From Schmidtea polychroa (lineage: Eukaryota): 64,000 nt of DNA. The first letter of the stretch is position 1; each line of letters begins with the position of its first letter. Made by a program: the position numbers and the translations under genes. The DNA lies in assembly GCA_044892525.1 (NCBI GenBank), contig CM097885.1, positions 35,590,001-35,654,000 on the forward strand, read 5' to 3'. Below the pieces are notes generated by a model. The model was not told the DNA's origin. It worked only from the letters and a program-made list of their open reading frames with translations, and searched no databases. Below, piece after piece: positions 8,008 to 8,290 of this stretch.

Positions 8008-8290
8008 TGACCTTGATGACTCATTGCGATGACTCAAATGACCTTGAGAATGACCTTGGGTGAGTCATGGTCTTTGTTTAAATGACCTTGAAAATTTTTA
8101 TGACTCATCGGATGAGTCATATGACCTTGAAAATGACCTTGATGGGTCATAGTATGAGTCATACGACCTTGAAAATGACCTTGATGAGTCATGGTCTTTG
8201 TTTAAATGACCTTGAGAAATTTGATGAGTCATAGGATGACTCATGGTCTTTGTTTCAATGACCTTGATGAGTCATATGTCTTTGTTTAAA
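8008..8290. promoter_or_regulatory. Motif array (TGA(C/G)TCA, TGACCTTG, TCTTTGTTT) in the terminal region of element B
   Basis: Hand count in ~280 bp: 10 AP-1-type, 9 NR5A/ERR-type and 4 TCTTTGTTT motifs. Confidence 0.6.

Follow-up and report, generated by a model that had tools for sequence, protein, structure and literature searches.

The window analysed here, 64,000 bp of AT-rich animal DNA with several Maverick/Polinton elements, contains near the end of one element an array of transcription factor words that is real and non-random and apparently bears, as far as one copy can tell, the mark of selection for binding by AP-1 and an NR5A-type receptor. With moderate confidence, the array is best read as a terminal host-factor enhancer of the Maverick, comparable to those at adenovirus ends, and it would probably serve as an on-switch tying the element to a particular host-cell state. 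The array is composed as follows.

8008..8299, + strand: whole motif array, a degenerate tandem with periods 42 and 124, made of AP-1, YCAAGGYCR and Sox/TCF-like words
8017, 8030, 8061, 8101, 8113, 8155, 8185, 8225, 8237, 8268: TGA(C/G)TCA, 10 exact words
8008, 8039, 8051, 8083, 8122, 8134, 8176, 8207, 8259, + strand: TGACCTTG, 9 exact words
8071, 8195, 8247, 8279: TCTTTGTTT, 4 exact words
8007..8121, + strand: first copy of a higher-order unit of ~125 bp, aligning with 8133-8245
8133..8245, + strand: second copy of this unit, aligning with 8007-8121

The exact word counts over 8008-8287 (10, 9 and 4) are those given by an earlier sequence-only reading, which also described the stretch as built almost wholly of these motifs; the coverage is indeed dense, and at 178 of 283 bp (63%) for the three word classes together the wording is somewhat strong. 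The remaining 63.7 kb of the window contains 4 AP-1 words, no TGACCTTG on either strand and 1 TCTTTGTTT, and 5,000 dinucleotide shuffles of the array gave means of 0.12, 0.05 and 0.08 for AP-1, TGACCTTG and TCTTTGTTT, with a maximum of 2 each. Degenerate additional sites are found at 8143 (AP-1 with one core change), 8164 (fit to YCAAGGYCR kept) and 8293 (decayed receptor site). The AP-1 words mostly read GATGASTCAT, the flanks of the 11 AP-1-like sites being A on the 5′ side and T on the 3′ side in 10 of 11 each, and all 10 receptor-type sites lie on one strand, nine of them as TGACCTTG on the + strand. The E-box word CANNTG occurs three times in the array, at motif junctions, and is not enriched in the window. 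The order of the words, previously taken as shuffled and not a simple tandem, turned out to be a degenerate higher-order tandem, in which TRF detects a period of 42 (5.7 copies, 70%) and a period of 124 (2.2 copies, 82%). The 23 sites are therefore duplication products and not 23 independent events, and because growth by duplication makes the shuffle test overstate the significance, further tests were needed.

Regarding its location, the array is found at a distance of 95-386 bp from the end of element B, a name of the earlier reading that we equate with the Maverick fragment at 1807-8394. The features of this fragment are listed below.

1807..8394, no strand assigned: element B, a truncated arm of a Maverick/Polinton, interrupted at 1806/1807, where the gene-less, repeat-rich element A ends
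1823..3010, - strand: rve integrase with chromodomain (Pfam rve E=1.5e-5, Chromo E=0.0016, below the curated cut-offs)
3549..4028, - strand: A32-like packaging ATPase, frame-broken upstream (Pox_A32 E=0.007)
4241..4705, + strand: TBP-like gene of the element (Pfam TBP E=9e-15)
6685..7008, - strand: Bcl-2-like ORF (Pfam Bcl-2 E=0.002, weak), starting ~1.0 kb from the array
7096..7602, + strand: last ORF before the end, with no Pfam match, starting ~0.9 kb from the array and divergent from the Bcl-2-like ORF
8300..8394, + strand: element B end, with an A-run, a G-run, a 16-bp duplication (8350-8382) and the terminal ...CATCTACT at 8394

The terminal placement claimed for the array is confirmed by the G-run and the following ...CATCTACT, which closes the element at 8394. 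Mavericks have TIRs of 46-1,447 bp, (AGT)2//(ACT)2 ends and 6-bp TSDs (PMC8097293). The TCTACT after the G-run of B shares five of the six letters of the (ACT)2 end motif and resembles the ends of element A, and the array would lie within a TIR, the other B end being outside the window. The integrase of B is 46-60% identical to those of close syntenic relatives, and its ATPase is 77-80% identical to theirs. Two metagenomic relatives (L010 and L028) have the gene order of B and continue with minor capsid, major capsid, protease and polymerase; B is thus one arm of a longer element, whose capsid, protease and polymerase half falls outside the window, and capsids, protease and protein-primed PolB are present in elements C and D. 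Within the integrase gene, an AAT run of 30 units (2456-2546) lies in frame, such runs being frequent across the window. Read by eye, the ORF at 7096-7602 (+) has a signal-peptide-like start, a coiled-coil-like middle and a hydrophobic, GPI-signal-like tail. Bcl-2-like ORFs tied to Maverick-like pieces occur at 6685-7008, 34611-34904, 36959-37120 and 51571-51888, and Bcl2 homologs have been reported in adintoviruses (PMC8502044).

The published AP-1 core is TGASTCA (bioRxiv 2022.05.06.490982), and the Ftz-F1/NR5A consensus is YCAAGGYCR (PMC7239656). The former is matched exactly by 10 array sites and broken at one (8143), and the latter is matched by all 10 receptor-type sites of the array and, by two counts, 0-2 times in the rest of the window. 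Eight of the 10 receptor-type sites also fit TNAAGGTCA, which we take to be the ERR word, the two variants fitting NR5A only. The assignment of these words to AP-1 and to SF-1/Ftz-F1/ERR in the sequence-only reading therefore holds, and as the two variant sites differ from TCAAGGTCA at the Y and R positions of the consensus, NR5A/Ftz-F1 is favoured over ERR. The third word, TCTTTGTTT, had been called Sox/Fox-like; an HMG-box (Sox/TCF) site is presumably the better reading of this word, so that the Sox side is retained and the Fox reading, with its imperfect fit to the consensus, is set aside. The HMG-box label is the weakest of the three putative assignments.

The two ~125-bp duplicates offer an internal test of constraint, in which the cores were defined by the published TGASTCA and YCAAGGYCR and by a Sox word. 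Changes fell on 2 of 62 core positions and on 10 of 36 spacer positions (Fisher p=6e-4, for one duplicate pair with 17 differences and cores chosen because they recur). The outcome that the sequence-only reading had named as refuting, cores no more conserved than spacers, was not observed in this pair. The degenerate receptor positions changed at 2 of 12, and 4 of the 5 AP-1 sites differ at their centre, every time between C and G, which is the sole change that the consensus allows. Among the 11 AP-1-like sites, 4 have C and 7 have G at the centre, A or T being found there in none, and both variant receptor sites remain within YCAAGGYCR. A look-elsewhere null, in which random hierarchical tandems were matched to panels of 50 or 150 randomly drawn motifs (4,000 runs in each of 12 settings), reached 9+9+4 matches in 0 to 0.85% of the runs per setting and 55% coverage in 0 to 1.6%. 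Taken together, the constraint on the cores and the C/G flips point to selection for AP-1 and NR5A/Ftz-F1-type binding. Against constraint stand the broken AP-1 core at 8143 and the decayed receptor site at 8293, and the flips at the centres could alternatively arise by template switching in short palindromes. The array strand folds well as DNA (z=-4.7 vs 100 shuffles). Hairpin selection on the AP-1 centres was considered and rejected: the 4 C and 6 G centres can be arranged in 210 ways, and in 80% of these the folding equals or exceeds that of the actual sequence; folding is thus a by-product of the palindromic words, and structure does not explain the flips.

As to how such an array may arise and act, local duplication of short TGAC-containing units would build it, and selection for binding by AP-1 (a Jun/Fos-type bZIP factor) and by a monomeric receptor of NR5A/Ftz-F1 type (or ERR) would keep it, an HMG-box factor being the probable third binder. 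Most likely, the array would function as an early enhancer, by which coinciding factors open the element end and drive the nearest promoters, those of the Bcl-2-like ORF and of the terminal ORF ~1 kb away; the TBP-like gene may be driven as well and could switch on the remaining genes of the element. Several reports on related systems bear on this scheme. Planarian Polintons are desilenced in differentiation, gaining H3K4me3 and RNA, while SMEDWI-2 keeps them repressed (PMC8532177); FTZ-F1 of schistosomes recognises an SF-1 element (PMC8673669); and jun-1 is among the wound-induced planarian genes (PMC9849279). These flatworm results would bear on the present element only if its host is itself a flatworm, of which the sequence gives a weak sign. 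An enhancer responding to stress or wounding and to nuclear receptors, as proposed in the sequence-only reading, may be conceived on this basis. The wound link is the least secure part of the scheme: tandem AP-1 sites by themselves did not respond to regeneration in zebrafish, where E-boxes had to be present as well (bioRxiv 2022.05.06.490982), and the window shows no enrichment of the E-box.

A different array of bZIP and receptor words is found 15 kb away in a second lineage, element C (23118-33876), which has exact AGTAGT/ACTACT ends and a 6-bp TSD and whose TBP-like protein is 62% identical to that of B. Its terminal repeats are the following.

23118..23900, + strand: C left terminal repeat, with an AGTAGT start, 14 TTAYRTAA, 3 TGACGTAA-type words and 4 exact DR1
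33420..33876, - strand: C right terminal repeat, with 7 TTAYRTAA, 2 TGACGTAA-type words and 1 exact DR1 (2 within two mismatches)

TTAYRTAA occurs 14 and 7 times in these terminal repeats (783 and 457 bp) and 16 times in the remaining 62,762 bp. The terminal repeats also contain 5 TGACGTAA-type words, with 1 elsewhere in the window, and all 7 of the window's DR1 matches within two mismatches, including the 5 exact ones. The outer 400 bp of the two ends carry 9 and 8 bZIP words and 5 and 4 receptor half-sites, and the first bZIP word lies 44 bp from the end. We take the words of C to be a PAR/CEBP/CREB-type bZIP site and an HNF4/RXR/COUP-type element (DR1). Being an independent parallel in another lineage, this array supports the reading of the B array as an enhancer. 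The left end of C is repeated in tandem, with AGTAGTGAG at 23118, 23384, 23445, 23736 and 23797; tblastn found no match to an integrase or ATPase in C, which apparently lacks both; and TBP-like genes (4241-4705 in B, 24596-25036 in C) are present also in related loci. Element D matches B at 84% identity along stretches of 254 and 608 bp. Its inverted repeats, among which true ends were not found, contain 1 bZIP word and 1-2 half-sites each and no array, and both ends of A contain 1 bZIP word and 0 half-sites and no array either. Arrays are thus present in two of the four element types of the window, which counts against generality.

The same host factors may bind the array with replication, packaging or integration as the main output, the array then being an auxiliary origin. 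This is compatible with an enhancer function, and we regard it as unlikely. The terminal position, 95-386 bp from the end, fits such a role, as do the use of a protein-primed polymerase by Mavericks (PMC10748475) and the position of the first bZIP word of C. NF-I and Oct-1 serve adenovirus protein-primed replication, the NF-I replication motif being located at nt 23-36 of the ITR (PMC6410123), and in NPVs non-hr origins exist and hrs are also origins (PMC4599791). The adenovirus sites, however, are single and within ~50 bp of the end, whereas the B array comprises 24 variably spaced sites in three classes and starts ~100 bp in, which is enhancer-like; moreover, the gene-less ends of A, expected to need a shared replication signal, have no such arrays.

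According to a second alternative, quite improbable in our judgement, the array is a neutral degenerate minisatellite of a kind common at Maverick ends, its resemblance to binding sites being due to chance and amplification and the C/G flips to template-switch errors in palindromes. The higher-order tandem structure agrees with this; the window has 117 TRF rows, and the ends of A and D are rich in repeats that lack these motifs; the AP-1 and receptor words have TGAC in common and may descend from one unit; and the one-strand polarity follows from tandem duplication. Neutrality is difficult to reconcile with the difference between core and spacer (p=6e-4), with the look-elsewhere null (at most 0.85%) and with the parallel array of different bZIP and receptor words in element C. 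Binding by an element-encoded protein, or maintenance through a single-strand end structure, with the host motifs only mimicked, is also improbable: although the DNA strand folds well (z=-4.7 vs 100 shuffles) and several B ORFs have no Pfam family, most of the alternative centre arrangements fold as well as the real one (80% of 210, as mentioned above), the four close AP-1 pairs have the centres CC, CG, GG and GC, and a bZIP or receptor domain was found in none of the nine B ORFs scanned, half of the element being missing.

The reading of the array as a host-factor enhancer connects it with known viral systems. Adenovirus ITRs bind NFI, Oct-1, SP1 and ATF and adjoin the E1A enhancer (PMC7851563), so that, as in B, the end of a linear protein-primed DNA virus carries host factor sites, which there serve both replication and transcription (PMC7851563, PMC6410123). 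The adenovirus ITR differs in its factors and in having single sites near the end, whereas B, an integrating element, has 24 amplified sites of three classes 95-386 bp in. Baculoviruses offer a further comparison. Their hrs are scattered through the genome, have a 30-bp palindrome as building block and are read with the viral IE1, and Landais and colleagues reportedly described clusters of bZIP sites in hrs in 2006. The resemblance to the B array is that hrs are viral repeat arrays, with roles as enhancers and as origins (PMC4599791); unlike these dispersed 30-bp imperfect palindromes, the B array is single, terminal and part of a Maverick, and it is not an hr. Clustered AP-1 words in mobile elements are also seen in zebrafish regeneration-responsive enhancers, some of which are TE-derived; the partner there is the E-box (bioRxiv 2022.05.06.490982), whereas in B it is a receptor site, with the three CANNTG located at junctions.

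The closest resemblance in word content came from three motif-pair scans of 2.9 million viral contigs, which gave 8, 10 and 8 stretches, multiple matches being confined to one and the same baculovirus contig; the remaining stretches are single matches and are taken as chance. In this contig of 131,995 bp (L005), the sequence directly upstream of fgf (gene names by our reading) is a tandem of 29-bp units that holds 17 AP-1 words and 17 TGACCTTG, and it is placed at L005 4960-5620 (21.9-22.5 kb of the contig). All 17 receptor words read GCAAGGTCA and are preceded by G, so that they miss the strict YCAAGGYCR. The 29-bp repeat matches the non-hr repeat of OpMNPV and DapuNPV, which is reported in PMC4599791 for these two viruses only; in the text consulted there, the stretch is called a repeat and its motifs are unnamed. 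Like the B array, the non-hr repeat is an intergenic viral tandem, with ATGA(C/G)TCAT and CAAGGTCA in about 16-17 copies adjoining fgf (PMC4599791); unlike it, the repeat has regular 29-bp units, belongs to an insect virus with a circular genome, has G before the receptor word (not strict NR5A), lacks the HMG word and shows no homology to B. It is a candidate enhancer of fgf that would act through host factors. In one scrambled control scan, 5 stretches came up and multiple matches were absent from all of them, and the parallel (1 vs 0) is not significant and suggestive only. A scan for DR1 with PAR words gave 3 single matches, all in one coding-like stretch. The B array may work like viral terminal and repeat enhancers (adenovirus ITR, baculovirus hr and non-hr) while being a member of none.

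Among the 70 related metagenomic loci collected (233,209 bases, with 7 loci of 7 kb or more), no array was found, with at most 3 words of bZIP type or 3 half-sites in any 400 bp, and no recognisable end either; the ends of five of these loci, read by eye, were uninformative. A 30-letter pattern specific to B had no match in metagenome contigs, and the TBP-like protein, a capsid protein and a capsid alignment found no relatives in viral contigs. In a distant relative (L064), 1 AP-1, 7 ACAAAG and 9 ATGAC words cluster at positions 1-270, immediately before a TATA box and the first gene, and the contig ends there. A search of sequencing runs returned part of 5400-8400 in 20 of the 24 matches listed, with no RNA among them, and is not counted as evidence.

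The principle that viruses carry sites for host factors in their ends and repeats is already known from adenovirus and baculovirus. Its Maverick form is absent from the literature searched: no description of factor-site arrays in Maverick ends or TIRs was found in the openly available text, including that of PMC8097293, PMC10748475 and PMC8502044, while subscription journals and supplements may hold one. In animal Mavericks, particles have not been observed (PMC8097293), and an end carrying AP-1 and NR5A words names candidate triggers and cell types. Two lineages within 64 kb with different bZIP and receptor codes suggest a general design that could be surveyed in existing Maverick sets. In a tentative and rather doubtful extension, Mavericks would carry lineage-specific composite end enhancers (AP-1, NR5A and Sox in B; PAR/CEBP-type and DR1 in C), each combining one amplified bZIP word with one receptor word, and co-resident lineages would divide host cell types or states among themselves; B might wake on stress or injury and scatter ready-made injury-responsive enhancers over the genome of a regenerating animal, and the same pairing would have arisen independently in the baculovirus.

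Some further features of the window were recorded. The stretches at 1-1806 and 9180-13388 are gene-less ends built of repeats (13-, 30- and 60-72-bp units) that finish in CTACCTACT like a Maverick, one of which interrupts B. The long inverted repeats around the degraded element D (41309-42082 and 52022-52890) lack a recognisable AGTAG/CTACT end and contain 3 TNAAGGTCA words. A piece of 70-80 bp with ~80% identity and a TACCCWTAGGGGG core recurs at 7625-7702, 9553-9621 and 63330-63407, in otherwise unrelated places, and may be a short dispersed element or a shared cis signal; a TACCCWTAGGGGG-like word is present in the C ends too. Two host genes were also noted: an intronless divergent rhodopsin-type GPCR at 39570-40649 (-), with one relative at 63% and neighbours mostly in rotifer and mollusc clusters, and an afadin-like RA-domain exon at 62883-63179 (+), the top cluster of which is mostly Platyhelminthes (3 records).
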